A DNA stretch of 34,056 nt from a virus (Duplodnaviria; Heunggongvirae; Uroviricota; Caudoviricetes): the IMG/VR virus record IMGVR_UViG_2703718832_000004; one strand, given 5' to 3'. Position numbers and translations under genes: made by a program. The first letter of the stretch is position 1. The number at the start of each line of letters is the position of its first letter. Below are positions 1,505-25,622 of the stretch, piece by piece. Under the pieces are notes generated by a model. It searched no databases. It worked only from the letters and a program-made list of their open reading frames with translations, and was not told the origin of the DNA.

Positions 1505-1894
1505 TTACTCCTTTTTCCCCGTATCGGCATCGGGTTCACCATCAAACAGTTTGCCCTGCATCCGATCCAGTTCTTCTTTTCTGACCCGCTTCACTACGCT
1601 GTAGACCCACTGTAGCGAAACACCAAATTTGCGGGCCAGTTCGTGATGGTTGCGTCCGTCAAACTCCAGGAAGATTTCCCGGTCGCGCTGGCTAACCTTC
1701 CAGACCATGCCCATCGGAAAATAGACGTTTTGCCCACCCCAGACCTGCATCATGCGGTTCGCAACAGCCTGACCAATCTGGTCGGCAACTGCGGGTTCGA
1801 TATCAATAATCTCTCGGACGGTCTCAGAAGTGTGCTGTGCCAGTTCTACCAACAGTTCCGGCCCTTTACTACGAAACTGATTCAGGTCGCTCAT
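1505..1894 (-). CDS. Mor/C-family transcriptional activator (Mu middle/late operon regulator-like)
   Basis: ORF 1505..1924 trimmed to ATG at 1894 preceded by GGGAG RBS; C-terminal region (NVYFP...FDGRNHHELARKFGVSLQWVYSVVKR) resembles the Mor/C HTH region of phage Mu; last gene of the minus-strand early arm. Confidence 0.7.
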   Translation of the reverse strand: MSDLNQFRSKGPELLVELAQHTSETVREIIDIEPAVADQIGQAVANRMMQVWGGQNVYFPMGMVWKVSQRDREIFLEFDGRNHHELARKFGVSLQWVYSVVKRVRKEELDRMQGKLFDGEPDADTGKKE

Positions 1895-2319
1895 TGCTTC
1901 ACTCCCGCAGCTCTGCGCTGCCACTTCTTCAGTTTCTCAATAACGCTACTTGCCTGCTCATTGCTGAGCCAGCGTAACGCGCTGATGCCCGTTTCCCGTT
2001 TAACCCACAACGCCAGCGCCTGCTCTGAACAGTCACGGACGGTACCCGCCGCTGCCATTTCAAGCCAAAGCGCACGGATTTTCTTTGACTGGGGATGGTT
2101 ATCCAGCGGTAAGCCGGACCTGGCTTTTCCGGCAGGCTTAATGCGAAAGCCTTTCTTTTTCATGGATTCCAGCACGCGGTTGAGCTGCGGGGTATCCATC
2201 CCTTTGGTTGAGGCTTTGCCGGTCAGACCCTGTAGCATCTGGCGGTAGGTGTCCTCATCCATCTGGAGGTCATTGCGGGCAATATGGATGAGTTGAATAA
2301 GACGCTGCTTAGTCATCAT
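1891..2319 (-). CDS. GemA-like regulatory protein (Mu gp16 family, DUF1018)
   Basis: N-terminus MMTKQRLIQLIHIARNDLQMDEDTYRQMLQ matches the characteristic GemA start; ATG at 2319 preceded by AAGGAG; stop overlaps the Mor start region. Confidence 0.7.
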   Translation of the reverse strand: MMTKQRLIQLIHIARNDLQMDEDTYRQMLQGLTGKASTKGMDTPQLNRVLESMKKKGFRIKPAGKARSGLPLDNHPQSKKIRALWLEMAAAGTVRDCSEQALALWVKRETGISALRWLSNEQASSVIEKLKKWQRRAAGVKQ

Positions 2320-7609: not shown

Positions 7610-8521
7610 TTATGCCTCCTGCCCGTTAATCTGTGGCGTCGGGTCAGTCAGCCATGAAGGGGCGGAGTTGCCTGTCGGCTCGTCCGGCAGGTCAAATGTG
7701 GAGCGCAGGCTACGCGCGGTGCTTTCCAGCTGGCAGACCAGACCGGCCATAAAGTCTCTGGGGGTATCAATCATGTTTTCAGCGCAGTATACGCACAGGG
7801 TCTCAAAGGCACTGGACAGTCGAACGGCGATGGCAGATTCCGCCTCAACCGCTAACGCCGTCACTTCTGCCCGCAGCTTCTTCACCTCTTCGTCAGGCTT
7901 AGGCGGCTGGATACGGGATTTCTTTTCCAGCTTTGTGGAGAGCGAGTCGATTTTTTCGTTTTTGTCGGCGAGTACGCGCTGTTGTGCTGCGTTGGTTTCA
8001 CGCGCTTCACGTAGGGCTGCCTTCAGTTCGCGGCTGGTCATGCGATCAATATCATCAAGCGTTGCCCCGGCGACGGTTCCACCATCAGCCAATGCGTCGA
8101 GTTCTTCGTCATCCAGAACCATCAGTTCATACAACTTGGTCTTACCTAAAACGGTCAGCGCTGTCCGTTTTGAATTTTGATCGCCATTACCCAAAAATTT
8201 CACGCTGGCCTGCATCATGCGGCGTGCGACGCGCGGCTCAAGGCCGAGGTCATTTTCGAGAATATTTATAAAATCGCCGTGAGGTTCATTCTCCTTGAGA
8301 ATTACCAGCCGCTTACCCGCCTCCAGCATGGCTTCAGCACTCTGAGCCATATAAAACCGTGTTTCGTGAACGATACGATCACGTTCATACGGCAGACCAT
8401 CACCGAACTGCTGCATGATTTCGAGGCGATGTTCTGTCATGGCATTAAGACTAACATTGAGGCCATCACTCAGCGATGCGTCTTCCACTAGTTCAACTGG
8501 TTGTGATTTTGTGCGTCCCAT
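7610..8521 (-). CDS. hypothetical early protein (coiled-coil rich), function unknown
   Basis: 303 aa ORF with AAGGAG RBS, between the winged-helix gene and the transposase; central region predicted coiled coil (LKAALREARETNAAQQRVLADKNEKIDSLSTKLEKK). Confidence 0.6.
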   Translation of the reverse strand: MGRTKSQPVELVEDASLSDGLNVSLNAMTEHRLEIMQQFGDGLPYERDRIVHETRFYMAQSAEAMLEAGKRLVILKENEPHGDFINILENDLGLEPRVARRMMQASVKFLGNGDQNSKRTALTVLGKTKLYELMVLDDEELDALADGGTVAGATLDDIDRMTSRELKAALREARETNAAQQRVLADKNEKIDSLSTKLEKKSRIQPPKPDEEVKKLRAEVTALAVEAESAIAVRLSSAFETLCVYCAENMIDTPRDFMAGLVCQLESTARSLRSTFDLPDEPTGNSAPSWLTDPTPQINGQEA

Positions 8522-9057: not shown

Positions 9058-9096
9058 ATGCACCGTGTTCCTATTGGGTTATGATGTACTCAATAT

Positions 9097-9114
9097 GAAT
9101 AAGTGTACTTATTC
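9097..9114. promoter_or_regulatory. operator-like inverted repeat GAATAAGT-GT-ACTTATTC in the repressor/early-operon divergent region
   Basis: Seen directly: 8-bp arms with 2-bp spacer at 9097..9114, flanked by two copies of ATGAATAA (9094..9101 and 9118..9125) inside the 89-bp AT-rich intergenic region 9058..9146. Confidence 0.5.
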
Positions 9115-9146
9115 AAAATGAATAACTCAAGTGAGATTTATTTGAA

Positions 9147-16453: not shown

Positions 16454-17949
16454 TGGCCCGTGGACTCTGGGTTTCACCCAATGAGTTTGTCTCTTTTGCC
16501 GAACCCAATAAAACGCTGACGGAGCAGATCGCCTCGCGTAGCCGCTCCATCGACTTCTTCGGGCTGGGAATGTACCTGCCTAACCCTGACCCCATTCTGA
16601 AATCTCAGGGCCGGGATATCCGCATCTATCGTGAACTGCGTACCGACCCGCTGGTTGGTGGCTGCATCCGCAGGCGTAAGGCGGCGGTCAAGTCGCTGGA
16701 GCGTGGTCTTGAGCGCGGTCATGCCCCGGCGCGGGTATTCGGCTTCATCCGGGATATGCTCGACGATCTGGATTTGTCCCGCATCATTGGCGAGATGACC
16801 GACGCCGTTCTCTACGGGTATCAGCCTTGCGAGATCATGTGGGGGCGTTCTGTTAAATCCTGGGGCATCACCGATATCGTGGGTAAGCCGCCAGAGTGGT
16901 TCCAGTTCGACAATGACAACCTGCTGCGCTTTCGGGCAAAAGACGCCGGGCTGGAGGGCGAGCCGGTCCCGCTGAACAAGTTCGTGGTACCGCGTCAGGA
17001 CGCGACCTACGACAACCCGTATGGTTTCCCTGACCTGTCGATGTGCTTCTGGCCCGTGACATTCAAAAAAGGCGGCATGAAATTCTGGGTGCGCTTTGCC
17101 GAGAAGTACGGCTCACCGTGGGTTATCGGCAAGCATCCGCGCGGGACGGCCCAGGGTGAGATTGACCTGCTGCTGGACTCCATGGAGGCAATGGTGGAAG
17201 ACGCGGTGGCCGCTATCCCTGACGATTCCTCCATTGAAATTAAGGAGGCCGCAGGCAAGGCCGACAGCAGCGATATTTATCAGAACCTGATCACGCTTGC
17301 CCGCAGTGAAATCTCCATCGCTCTGCTGGGGCAGAACCAAACCACCGAGGCCAACAGTAACCGCGCCTCCGCGCAGGCCGGACTGGAGGTCACCGATGAT
17401 ATCCGTGACGCTGACGCTGATATCGTGGAAAGCGCGGTGAATCAGGCCATCAGGATGGCGGTATCGATGAACTTTGGCGATGTGGCCAGCCCCGTCTGGA
17501 AGATGTGGGAACAGGGAACGGTCGATGATACCCAGGCGACCCGCGACGAGAAACTCAGCCGCGCCGGTGTGGTCTTCACCCCGCAATACTTCAAGCGTGA
17601 GTACCAGCTGCAGGACGGCGATATTGACGAGACACCACCGTCAGAGCGCCAGAAGAACACGCTGCCGCTGTCGTTCGCCGAGGCCATAGATGCTGATATT
17701 CAGGCCCAGCAGGACCTCGATGATGCGCTGGATATTCTGATGAACGGTGGCACCTTAAACGGCGTACTTGCGCCGGTGCTGGAGCCGCTCTTTAACCAGG
17801 TGAAAGACGGCGTTGACCCGTCTGAGCTGCTGGGAGCGCTGGCTGAACTGTACCCGCAGATGAATGCGGATGACCTGCAGGAACGGCTGGCCCGTATCAT
17901 GTTTGTTGCAACTGTCTGGGGGCGTCTGCATGAGCGTGACAACGGCTGA
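16453..17949 (+). CDS. portal protein (Mu gp29-like, DUF935)
   Basis: 498 aa immediately after TerL; size and order match the Mu-type portal. Confidence 0.7.
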   Translation: MARGLWVSPNEFVSFAEPNKTLTEQIASRSRSIDFFGLGMYLPNPDPILKSQGRDIRIYRELRTDPLVGGCIRRRKAAVKSLERGLERGHAPARVFGFIRDMLDDLDLSRIIGEMTDAVLYGYQPCEIMWGRSVKSWGITDIVGKPPEWFQFDNDNLLRFRAKDAGLEGEPVPLNKFVVPRQDATYDNPYGFPDLSMCFWPVTFKKGGMKFWVRFAEKYGSPWVIGKHPRGTAQGEIDLLLDSMEAMVEDAVAAIPDDSSIEIKEAAGKADSSDIYQNLITLARSEISIALLGQNQTTEANSNRASAQAGLEVTDDIRDADADIVESAVNQAIRMAVSMNFGDVASPVWKMWEQGTVDDTQATRDEKLSRAGVVFTPQYFKREYQLQDGDIDETPPSERQKNTLPLSFAEAIDADIQAQQDLDDALDILMNGGTLNGVLAPVLEPLFNQVKDGVDPSELLGALAELYPQMNADDLQERLARIMFVATVWGRLHERDNG

Positions 17950-18751
17950 ACTGGCGTACTGCATGACGCTTCCCCCGAAGCGGGCTATCAGTTACCTGAA
18001 GTCCAAAGGGTATAGCTTCACATGGGACTGGGAGGAGATGTGGCAGGATGCCCATGCCCGCGCCTTTACCGTCGCCAAAGTGACCCGGCTGGATATTCTG
18101 GAAGATATCAGGAGCGCCCTGCAGCAGGCACTGGATGAGGGCAAGACTGACCGCTGGTTCCGCCAGCAGCTGGAGCCGGAGCTGCAGCGCAAGGGATGGT
18201 GGGGGCCACGTGACACCACCGACCCGGTAACGGGCGAGCCGGTCACCATCCAGCAGGGCAGCCCGTGGCGGCTCGACACCATCTTTCGTACCAATATGTC
18301 CGTACTCTACAGTGCCGGTCGCTGGGCGGAGCAGATGGAGAACGTCGACGACAGGCCGTACTGGATGTATACCGGCATCAACGACAGCCATACCCGCAAG
18401 AGCCATCTGGCGCTGCATGGTCTGGTACTGCGCTATGATGACCCGTTCTGGCAGGCGTTCTACCCGCCGAACGGCTGGCGCTGCCGCTGTGGCGTCATTG
18501 CCCTGAGCGCGGCGGATGTGCGTGCCCGTGGCCTCAAGGTGTCAGATTCTGGCACAGCCATGGGATGGGAGTTGAAGCTGGTCTCAGAGAAAACAGGCGA
18601 GATGCAGAACGTCGCCACCTTCAATACCGGCACCACGAAGGTAGCCACCGACGTCGGCTGGTCTTACGCGCCGGGGGCAGCATACCGTCCCGACCTTGCC
18701 CGCTATCAGGGTACGCTTCAACCGCTGGCACAGCAGGAACTGAGAGGATAA
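17930..18751 (+). CDS. head morphogenesis protein (Mu F-like / SPP1 gp7 family)
   Basis: 273 aa from ATG 17930 (listed ORF starts upstream inside the portal gene); follows portal as in Mu. Confidence 0.6.
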   Translation: MSVTTAELAYCMTLPPKRAISYLKSKGYSFTWDWEEMWQDAHARAFTVAKVTRLDILEDIRSALQQALDEGKTDRWFRQQLEPELQRKGWWGPRDTTDPVTGEPVTIQQGSPWRLDTIFRTNMSVLYSAGRWAEQMENVDDRPYWMYTGINDSHTRKSHLALHGLVLRYDDPFWQAFYPPNGWRCRCGVIALSAADVRARGLKVSDSGTAMGWELKLVSEKTGEMQNVATFNTGTTKVATDVGWSYAPGAAYRPDLARYQGTLQPLAQQELRG

Positions 18752-18753
18752 CG

Positions 18754-19212
18754 ATGGCTTCCGATAACCTGGTCAATATCACCATTAACGATGAATCCCT
18801 GCGCCGGAGCCTCCGTGCGCTGGACCTGGCTGCCACAGACCTGGAACCCGCAATGCGCAAAATCGCCGGAACCCTGCTGACAGAGACGCAGTTTAACTTT
18901 CTCGATGAGGGACGTCCGGGGTGGACTCCCTCGCTGGCAGCAGATGAGCGCGACGGGCAAACACTGCAGGATACCGGGCGTCTGATGGGGTCAGTATCAA
19001 CCGACCATGACGACCGGCAGGCAGCGGTTGGCACTAATGTCGTTTATGCGCCGATTCACCAGTTCGGTGGTAAAACGGGGCGTAATGAGTCCGTTGAACT
19101 TCCAGCCCGTCCGTTCCTGCCGCTGACAGGGGACGGTGAGCTGCAGCCTGAAGTGGTTGTCCCCATCCTCGATACGATTGTCCGCCATCTTGAAGCAGCG
19201 GCCCGTCGCTGA
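18754..19212 (+). CDS. virion morphogenesis protein (Mu G-like)
   Basis: 152 aa from ATG 18754 with GAGAGGA RBS; position after F-like gene. Confidence 0.55.
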   Translation: MASDNLVNITINDESLRRSLRALDLAATDLEPAMRKIAGTLLTETQFNFLDEGRPGWTPSLAADERDGQTLQDTGRLMGSVSTDHDDRQAAVGTNVVYAPIHQFGGKTGRNESVELPARPFLPLTGDGELQPEVVVPILDTIVRHLEAAARR

Positions 19213-19255
19213 GTTTTGTCTCTACAGGCGGGGATTTATCATTGCCAGCCGCTGA

Positions 19256-19291
19256 GGGGCTGTATTACCTTTATAAAGGCTTTACAGCCCC
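19256..19291. promoter_or_regulatory. 36-bp near-perfect palindrome between G-like and I-like genes
   Basis: GGGGCTGTA-tta-CCTTTATAAAGG-ctt-TACAGCCCC; only two 3-nt bubbles break the symmetry; centre CCTTTATAAAGG resembles the late-operon motif half CCTTTAA. Confidence 0.5.
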
Positions 19292-19425
19292 CGCTTTGCA
19301 CCACTATTTGCCCGCAGCGTGACATTCCCCGTACTGATACCCCCGATTTTTTCTAAAGCAGATTAAAAGCGCTGCTGATGCTTTTTCCACAGACTGTCCC
19401 CGACAACGTAACGCGGGACAGCAAA

Positions 19426-20523
19426 ATGCCAGCCATTCACATTTTTAAAGCCGGTACTCATACCGATATGCACGGCACGAAACTGCCGTTCACGCAAAGC
19501 GATCTTGCCGCCTGCGTGAAATCCTATGACCCGTCCGTCCATGAAGCACCACTCGTTATTGGCCACCCCAAAACGGAAGACCCGGCGTGGGGCTGGGTGA
19601 AATCCCTGTCGCTTAACGGCGGCGATCTGCTGGCAGAGCCTGACCAGCTCGACCCGCAGTTTGCCGAACTGGTGGGCAACGGACGATTCAAGAAGGTCTC
19701 CGCCTCGTTCTATCTCCCTGACTCACCGAACAACCCGAAGCCCGGCACGCTTTACCTGCGTCATGTCGGTTTTCTGGGCGCACAGCCACCTTCCATTAAG
19801 GGGCTGAAGCAGGTCTCGTTTGGTGAGAAAGAAGAAGGCGTCGTGGAGTTTGCCGACTGGAGTGATATCACCAATGCCTCTTTATGGGGCCGTCTGCGCG
19901 ATTTTCTGATCGCCCAGTTCGGGCTGGACGAGACCGACAAGGTGCTTCCTTCATGGCAGGTTGATTCCCTGCGCGAAGAGGCTTACCGCGACACCGGGAA
20001 GTCTGAACCGGACTTCAGTGAACACAATCCCAACCCTCAACAAGAGAACAGCACCATGACTGAAGAAGAAATCAAAGCCCTTCAGGCGGAAAACACGCGT
20101 CTGAAAGCGGAAGCCACCCAGCGGGCGGAACAGGAAGCAAAGACCAGGCAGGACAAGCTGCACGCGGACAACGTCTCCTTTGCCGAGAAGCTGGTTGGCG
20201 ATGGCCGACTGGCCCCCAAAGCGAAGTCGGTTGTCGTGGCCATTCTTGACGCTGTCTCTGCAGGTGACAAGCCGGTTGAGTTTGCCGAAGGCGATACCCG
20301 CACCCCGCTGGCCACGGCGTTTAAGACGCTGCTGAACAGCACTGATCCGGTACTGAATTTCAGTGAACACGCGACCAAAGACCGCGTGAGCACTGATATC
20401 AAAACGACGACAGCGGAGTTTGCTGAAGCCGACCCGGAACGTCTGGCGCTGCATCAGAAAGCGCTGGAACTGTCGAAAAAAGAAGGCATCAGCTACGACG
20501 CTGCTGTCTCCCGCTGCCTGTAA
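19426..20523 (+). CDS. head protease/scaffold protein (Mu I-like)
   Basis: 365 aa from internal ATG 19426; directly upstream of the major head subunit as in Mu (I then T). Confidence 0.6.
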   Translation: MPAIHIFKAGTHTDMHGTKLPFTQSDLAACVKSYDPSVHEAPLVIGHPKTEDPAWGWVKSLSLNGGDLLAEPDQLDPQFAELVGNGRFKKVSASFYLPDSPNNPKPGTLYLRHVGFLGAQPPSIKGLKQVSFGEKEEGVVEFADWSDITNASLWGRLRDFLIAQFGLDETDKVLPSWQVDSLREEAYRDTGKSEPDFSEHNPNPQQENSTMTEEEIKALQAENTRLKAEATQRAEQEAKTRQDKLHADNVSFAEKLVGDGRLAPKAKSVVVAILDAVSAGDKPVEFAEGDTRTPLATAFKTLLNSTDPVLNFSEHATKDRVSTDIKTTTAEFAEADPERLALHQKALELSKKEGISYDAAVSRCL

Positions 20524-25527: not shown

Positions 25528-25558
25528 CACAGGGGCTTCGGCCCCTTTCTTCTTAATC
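25528..25558 (+). terminator. intrinsic terminator-like hairpin (CACAGGGGC-TTCG-GCCCC followed by TTTCTTCTT)
   Basis: Seen directly: GC stem with TTCG tetraloop and T-rich tail, right after the stop of the 93-aa gene. Confidence 0.55.
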
Positions 25559-25582
25559 CCCTTTAATATCCGTCACGCTCAC
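25557..25582 (+). promoter_or_regulatory. conserved late-operon motif copy 2 (CCCCTTTAATATCCGTCACGCTCACC) upstream of tail chaperone
   Basis: Core CTTTAATATCCG starts 62 nt before the chaperone ATG, the same spacing as copy 1 before the holin ATG (61 nt). Confidence 0.5.
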
Positions 25583-25622
25583 CTCCAGACATACTGCTCT
25601 GAACTTACAAAGGAGCACGATC

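Follow-up and report, generated by a model that had tools for sequence, protein, structure and literature searches.

Phage Mu requires a central strong gyrase site (SGS) for fast replicative transposition via synapsis of the prophage ends (PMC10052514, PMC2628397, PMC3820752). In both Mu and FluMu, the strong gyrase site lies between genes G and I (PMC2628397), and of the substitute gyrase sites that were tried, just the site of an E. coli O157 prophage could replace the Mu SGS (PMC10052514). The Mor/C-dependent promoters of Mu lack a -35 element and combine a -10 element with a 16-bp dyad whose two short half-sites are centred at -43.5, and the phage has four late promoters (PMC2582627, PMC4390567). 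Mu Pm can do without the sequence upstream of -57 (PMC4390567). The GenBank record of Mu places three features in the G-I gap: a gyrase cut at 17879^17880, 20 bp past G, a terminator predicted by TransTermHP (17908-17953), and PI, a late promoter, at 17977-18043.

A different point of comparison is provided by the REP/BIME elements of E. coli, which are imperfect palindromes of ~35-40 bp with conserved mismatches, positioned past operon ends. REPs stabilise mRNA 3' ends or serve as weak terminators, and IHF binds to some of them. Some REPs also bind gyrase, which cleaves REP palindromes in loops and mismatched regions (PMC6379681). Here, we describe a palindrome in the G-I gap of a BcepMu-like prophage that can be compared with both systems.

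Genomic context of the G-I gap

The window is the whole stretch of DNA that was analysed, the 34,056 nt of IMG/VR virus record IMGVR_UViG_2703718832_000004, and it represents a BcepMu-like (Mu-type) transposable prophage of Enterobacteriaceae. Its DNA shares 97% identity with Klebsiella phage KP12 and 81% with Escherichia phage PhiKM (genus Bcepmuvirus), and matching prophages were found in 637 of 5,426 complete E. coli genomes (~12%). A near-identical annotated prophage (locus L004 2797-37124) is 34,328 bp long. The Mu-type genes near the palindrome encode a small terminase (Mu gp27), portal, F, a G-type virion morphogenesis protein, gp36 and gp37, and the window also encodes a DDE transposase, a MuB-like ATPase, GemA and a Mor-family activator. 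The activator gene (1505..1924, minus strand; PF08765, E 1.3e-42), the single Mor-family gene in the PGAP annotation of the L004 prophage, is the presumed activator of four late promoters.

The first late operon contains the lysis, terminase, portal, F and G genes, and the second contains I, the major head gene and the genes that follow. The operon upstream of the palindrome is 7 kb long and co-directional, and its last member is the G-like virion morphogenesis gene (18754..19212, plus strand; Pfam Phage_tail_S). Beyond the gap, the I-like head protease/scaffold gene (19426..20523, plus strand) encodes a product with ~49% identity to gp32, the head protease of BcepMu and its 'Mu I equivalent'. 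The sizeable intergenic gap claimed in the original prediction is real, with G ending at 19212 and the ATG of the I-like gene at 19426. A 41-aa 'hypothetical protein' annotated in this gap in phage KP12 (L001 3668-3793, approximately window 19232-19356) was rejected as non-coding on the basis of indels and 90% variable columns.

The left end of the prophage, at ~1344-1420 (TGATTAGACTTGAGATAAATG...), carries repeated GAGATAAATG-type motifs, of which inverted copies are found at the right end; the two ends correspond to L004 2797 and 37124, and the right one falls outside the window. These end motifs are probably transposase binding sites. The gap itself resembles them in just the 7-mer GATAAAT at 19234-19245, which could be a chance match, and a relationship to the transposase end repeats was rejected.

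Structure and folding of the palindrome

The palindrome occupies 19256-19291, begins 44 nt past the G stop codon and reads GGGGCTGTA-TTA-CCTTTATAAAGG-CTT-TACAGCCCC, in exact agreement with the 36-bp element with two 3-nt bubbles that had been proposed. A repeat search returned two abutting 18 nt arms (19256-19273 and 19274-19291; spacer 0 nt) that are complementary at 15/18 positions (83%), the three mismatches per arm being the TTA/CTT bubbles. The imperfect, unstranded dyad consists of a 9-bp outer stem, a 3x3 bubble, a 4-bp inner stem and a 4-nt loop. Symmetry of 15/18 pairs was reached at only two centres in the 34-kb window, and arose anywhere in 0.5% of 200 composition-preserving shuffles of the window. 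The folding energy calculation that had been suggested as a check indicated a stable hairpin: the plus-strand RNA folds at -20.9 kcal/mol (z -3.7), a value equalled by 0/200 shuffles, and the minus-strand RNA folds at -24.2 kcal/mol. The locus thus presents a stable G+C-rich stem-loop on the transcribed strand just 3' of a gene, as expected of an intrinsic terminator.

Two further palindromic regions were observed in the window. A strong operator-like dyad with three AATGAATAA repeats lies at 9088-9123 in the early control region, and a strong palindrome at 10956-10991 forms a hairpin with a 17-bp stem (-32.8 kcal/mol), followed by GTTCTTTC.

Conservation of the palindrome and its core

Relatives were retrieved via the G protein (80 IMG/VR loci) and the I protein (80 genomes, one per species). 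Conservation in related prophages, which had been named as a check, was pronounced. Among 44 unique close relatives with the long palindrome, 4/36 columns vary (19262, 19268, 19288 and 19290), all of them outside the loop and the two bubbles, compared to 46/51 columns in the neighbouring segment 19292-19342 and 26/43 in 19213-19255. The palindrome is accordingly the most conserved stretch of the G-I gap, and its loop and bubbles are as conserved as its stems. The invariance of the loop and bubble columns leads us to regard a plain terminator as an insufficient explanation. In E. coli, the element was found at 716 places in 637 genomes, with a median of one per genome and always in a prophage context.

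Across greater distances, conservation is concentrated in the invariant core TTTATAAA (19270..19277, unstranded), which lies within CTTTATAAAG (19269-19278). The core was present in the gap of every IMG/VR relative for which gap sequence was available, and in 42 of 80 species-level relatives, against ~0.4 expected by chance. In these 42 relatives it sits 135-255 nt before the I start, and 135-180 nt before it in all but one locus. It was also found in BcepMu, phiE255, Ralstonia YO107_2, Pseudomonas Komp_PAO1_1 and B3. Relatives that keep the core range from those of Enterobacteriaceae to those of Burkholderia, Pseudomonas and Dechloromonas, and BcepMu (63% G+C) has a single copy in its 36.7 kb. 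The only other copy in the window, at 8265-8272, lies in a gene matching an L004 DUF3102-domain protein, has non-palindromic flanks and is probably due to chance. A search of IMG/VR with the pattern TTTATAAAG-N1-2-TTTACNG returned mostly chance matches in AT-rich contigs and was not used. In the literature consulted, which does not extend to the BcepMu genome paper, we know of no description of the sequence family of this element; the kind of element is known.

The flanks of the core differ wholly between lineages, with dyad symmetry kept in the same register. In a set of 26 non-redundant relatives (Enterobacterales, Pseudomonas, Burkholderia, Dechloromonas and others), 64.5% of symmetric cells were paired, compared to 55.4+/-2.1% in shuffles (0/500 as high) and 34-47% when the register was slid. 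The symmetry is compensated, with GC<->CG swaps at several pairs (columns 8/37, GC:10 and CG:8; columns 17/28, CG:7 and GC:7). Cells of G-U type were no commoner than those of A-C type (28 vs 21, as composition predicts), revealing no RNA-wobble signature, and this points to Watson-Crick symmetry maintained at the DNA level. The core is present in all 26 lineages, and a long stable hairpin in ~10; half of the lineages retain a mere 4-5 bp mini-hairpin.

A separate promoter for the head genes

Four late-arm gaps of the window share a promoter architecture, nTAA-N6-TTAA followed after 23 nt by the hexamer nAnnnT. As a strict pattern, this architecture has exactly four matches in the 68 kb of two-strand sequence, all on the plus strand and all ahead of late operons. 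The four promoters are located before the holin gene (activator site 11971-11984, -10 12008-12013), before I (19353-19366, -10 19390-19395), and at a third (25553-25566, -10 25590-25595) and a fourth position (31369-31382, -10 31406-31411). Their family consensus is nTTTtTAAAcCcGATTAAAAGcC...CAnaCTG. The suggestion that the centre of the palindrome resembles a doubled half of the late-operon motif held in a limited sense, in that CCTTTA starts CCTTTAATATC in two late promoters.

The promoter before I combines an activator site (CTAA-AGCAGA-TTAA, centre ~ -43) with the -10 hexamer CAGACT. Site and hexamer are kept in the same register in 24/26 non-redundant relatives, with A2 and T6 of the hexamer invariant and the spacing fixed at 23 nt. 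A T-run just 5' of the activator site (19346..19352, plus strand) matches the consensus and occupies the position of a proximal UP subsite (~ -56..-50), as in Mu Pm (PMC4390567). Like the Mu middle and late promoters, 19353-19395 has two short inverted half-sites with a 6-bp G+C-rich spacer, a centre near -43 and a -10 without a -35, and it belongs to a set of four late promoters. Because of this Mor/C-type architecture, and because a Mor-family gene is present in the window, we assign the head-gene promoter to 19353-19395. Transcription of the I operon would start near 19402.

The reading of the hexamer as a -10 element is supported by the I start codon lying 6-7 nt past it in beta-proteobacterial relatives, where the arrangement upstream of I is GATCAT-GGCGGC-ATG (loci L244, L263, L264, L291 and L088). 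The same spacing is seen at another site in the window, AATACT-GCCCCC-ATG, with the ATG at 31418. A distance of 6-7 nt between the -10 and the start codon would imply that the late mRNAs are leaderless.

An inverted repeat, CTGTCCCCG...CGGGACAG, runs from within the -10 hexamer upstream of I as far as the ribosome-binding region of that gene (19394-19420), and counterparts that differ in sequence are retained in Photorhabdus, Dickeya, Pseudomonas and Glaesserella. Since its 5' arm lies ahead of the position where transcription is predicted to start, only read-through RNA can contain the whole hairpin, which may block translation of I from read-through transcripts.

A candidate transcript-end hairpin

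The palindrome is a real and conserved boundary element after the first late operon, near the midpoint of the prophage. Its best reading is as a REP-like boundary element, in which a transcript-end hairpin would be combined with a sequence-specific DNA site. We estimate a probability of roughly 40% that the palindrome ends the upstream transcript or protects its 3' end. The roles considered in this study are not mutually exclusive, and the confidences attached to them do not sum to 1.

We propose that BcepMu-like transposable phages share a conserved, single-copy extragenic palindrome that would mark the boundary of the first and second late operons, and that the element described here is its form in enterobacteria. 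Upon transcription of the upstream operon, the RNA would fold into a hairpin of -21 kcal/mol 44 nt past the G stop codon. This hairpin would either stop the transcript, leakily in this lineage and more efficiently where it is followed by a T-run, or shield the 3' end, leaving the head genes reliant on their own Mor-activated promoter 86 bp downstream. The same DNA would also be read sequence-specifically by a protein, as the AT-rich centre and the mismatched bubbles are invariant. A protein site of this kind and a role as an RNA hairpin can go together, as REP elements illustrate and the Mu gap suggests.

The location of the palindrome, directly after the last gene of an operon and ahead of a promoter, favours this reading. 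As in intrinsic terminators, a GC-clamped stem-loop follows the stop codon in the sense orientation. The T-tract of the window (19292..19299, plus strand; CCGCTTTGC) is weak; it amounts to CGCTTTGC, failed the terminator criterion, and the terminator scan does not call the palindrome. Sister lineages carry more terminator-like forms, with the tails TGTTTTAT (PhiKM type), TGTTTTCC (L064 type) or GGGTTTGGTT after the hairpin. In E. coli the common form is the PhiKM type (~614 genomes), which reads ...CAGCCTCTGTTTTATAA and has a 10-bp stem followed by GUUUUAUAA. The BcepMu version, with a 13-bp stem and TTTGGTTCGA, was called terminator-like by the scan, and both the PhiKM type and BcepMu (TTTGGTT) have the U-run expected of intrinsic terminators. 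Across the 26 lineages the tail is directional, with T at 34-50% in +19..+24 compared to 0-34% for A at the mirror positions. The idea of a strong RNA hairpin separating head transcripts is therefore compatible with the stability of the element, its position 44 nt past G and the T-run of sister lineages, with the reservation that the T-tract of the window itself is degenerate.

Another late-operon boundary in the window offers a supporting parallel, as a canonical terminator is followed there directly by the next promoter. This terminator (25531-25546; GGGGCTTCGGCCCC + TTTCTTCTT) abuts the activator site of the third late promoter (to 25566). The G-I gap of Mu, in which PI comes after a predicted terminator, likewise has its parts arranged in this order.

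Several observations weigh against a purely structural hairpin. The unpaired bases are invariant, which such a hairpin does not need and which sets the element apart from intrinsic terminators; the long hairpin is restricted to ~10/26 lineages although the core occurs in all; the T-tract of the window is weak, and there is no wobble signature. In addition, a second, smaller terminator-like hairpin already covers the last codons and stop of G (19196..19221, plus strand; CAGCGGCCCGTCGCTG + AGTTTTGTCT), as called by the terminator scan and also present in PhiKM. Between the two hairpins, a weak dyad, CAGGCGG...CCGCTG (19225..19254, plus strand), is what is left of a 'hairpin 1' that other lineages have in a strong form, with unrelated sequences. 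The first hairpin after G in Pectobacterium and Brenneria relatives (L227/L231; GCGGCACA...TGTGCCGC) looks like the GGCACATTGTGCC repeats of Pseudomonas phage Ab30, in which a published candidate central gyrase region (L297 860-900) contains two inverted copies of GGCACATTGTGCC.

The comparison to REP/BIME elements concerns the kind of element and not its ancestry. The palindrome shares with them its size, its imperfect symmetry with conserved mismatches and its place after an operon end. It is not a member of the REP family: it is single-copy and prophage-confined, with an unrelated sequence and an AT-rich centre, unlike the dispersed multi-copy family that is defined by the REP consensus.

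Alternative roles of the palindrome

The original prediction also envisaged a dyad-symmetric activator site for a head-gene promoter, and the palindrome might accordingly be an upstream Mor activator site or enhancer of the I promoter. We consider this very unlikely. The minus strand of the palindrome (GTAAAGCCTTTATAAAG) has a weak likeness to the BcepMu site GTAAAGCCGATTAAAAG, and with a position matrix built from 27 activator sites the palindrome ranks ~55 of 68,070 positions; however, its best position scores ~0 bits, compared to 18-33 bits for the four real sites of the window. The half-sites of the palindrome abut where Mor/C sites have a 6-bp spacer within a 16-bp dyad, the second half-site is TATA and not the invariant TTAA, and inspection of both strands downstream of the palindrome revealed no conserved -10 in the Mor register, 23-24 nt away. 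The palindrome is 86 bp from the promoter, with its centre at ~ -128 from the predicted start and not near -43.5, and Mu Pm makes no use of sequence upstream of -57 (PMC4390567). Among relatives, 66 to 107 bp separate the centre of the palindrome from that of the activator site, and these distances show no helical phasing. The ~0-bit score and this variable distance lead us to conclude that the palindrome is not an activator site; that function belongs to the separate Mor/C-type promoter at 19353-19395. A further alternative places the signal in the RNA, with the bubbles and the UAUA loop forming an RNase III/RNase E-type site, or a site for a phage RNA-binding protein, that separates the upstream and head messages. 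Such a signal would be in keeping with a hairpin that is irregular, has an internal loop and lies between two cistrons, with the invariance of its unpaired bases, and with the inverted repeat between the -10 and the ribosome-binding site of I, which suggests read-through. It is nonetheless improbable, given the lack of a wobble signature, a stem shorter than that of typical RNase III substrates, the reduction to a 4-5 bp mini-hairpin in half of the lineages and the lack of any Rfam match for the whole window at the gathering threshold. That the palindrome is a chance structure or a neutral relic without function is effectively refuted by the conservation data; the weak T-tract of this lineage is all that speaks for it, against symmetry found in 0.5% of shuffles, the most conserved segment of the gap and a core kept across distant hosts.

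Another possible role is in DNA topology. We consider it possible, with some doubt, that in the BcepMu family the palindrome corresponds to the Mu SGS, or that it is a site for an IHF/HU-type architectural protein. Once bound, this site in the middle of the 34-kb prophage would sit at the apex of a supercoiled loop and pair the transposon ends for transpososome assembly. As in Mu, the element falls in the G-I gap and close to the middle of a transposable phage of ~35 kb; expressed as a fraction of the prophage, it is at 0.506 (L004 2797-37124), compared to 0.487 for Mu and 0.510 for BcepMu. The two gaps also share their flanking genes and their order of parts, namely G end, dyad/AT-rich element, T-run, activator-dependent late promoter and I. 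The site is unique in the BcepMu genome, and its invariant centre and bubbles, together with Watson-Crick symmetry lacking any wobble preference, suggest that the DNA itself is recognized. A Mu-type SGS has an extended arm with phased anisotropic bending signals; here, the lineages show AT/GC blocks with a phase of ~10 bp between -40 and +16, the signal being weak to the right. Two distant, unrelated lineages (L241-L243 and L290; CCTTTATAAACCTTTATAAAGG and CGTTTATAAACGTTTATAAATA) carry the core as a tandem pair with 10-bp spacing. The core and right arm, TATAAAGGCTTTA (19272-19284), differ from the IHF consensus WATCAANNNNTTR by one mismatch, and the consensus is matched with <=1 mismatch in 15/26 lineages; on the other hand, this sole mismatch places an A at the consensus C. 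That C is the best-conserved base of the IHF consensus. A search for the Fis consensus gave no match. The gyrase cleavage of REPs in loops and mismatches (PMC6379681) would suit a palindrome of this form.

Sequence comparison was less favourable. Smith-Waterman alignment of the Mu G-I gap with 26 relatives revealed no consistent or significant similarity, and the Mu arrangement, a cut site 20 bp past G and a dyad with a 26-nt AT-rich loop, differs from the compact 36-bp palindrome with its invariant TTTATAAA centre; a gyrase role here is putative. A scan with a 133-bp gyrase consensus string from the Topo-Seq supplement, too crude to rank the Mu control above 246/36,585, gave a best local score at 19287 of z ~2.1-2.3 (Mu control z 2.5), which is not a good motif match; with the same string, no consistent gyrase cleavage core common to the 26 lineages was found. 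Gyrase reads DNA indirectly and degenerately, making an invariant 8-mer unexpected, and its consensus cleavage centre is GC-rich, not TTTATAAA. Static curvature predicted at the palindrome is low, in a wedge model in which even Mu was no outlier. The site of a BcepMu-like Salmonella Typhi prophage is reportedly among the substitutes that failed to replace the Mu SGS. The O157 prophage site, alone among those tried, did replace it (PMC10052514), which also counts against this reading. We consider it rather unlikely that the palindrome with its invariant TTTATAAA centre is the central SGS equivalent of the BcepMu family, a sequence-recognizable dyad that would organize topology at the prophage midpoint through gyrase, and possibly IHF/HU.

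Biological significance

Our analysis defines one short, unique and strongly conserved element at the position equivalent to the Mu SGS, in a phage family that is carried by ~12% of complete E. coli genomes and by many beta- and gamma-proteobacteria. If the palindrome is merely an operon-end hairpin, the transcription map of the late arm is still fixed, with four Mor-type promoters, their consensus and the operon boundaries, and this map is useful for annotating these common prophages. If the element is a topological organizer, central organizers would be general in transposable phages, and in the BcepMu-like prophages the organizer would be fused to the hairpin at the end of an operon.
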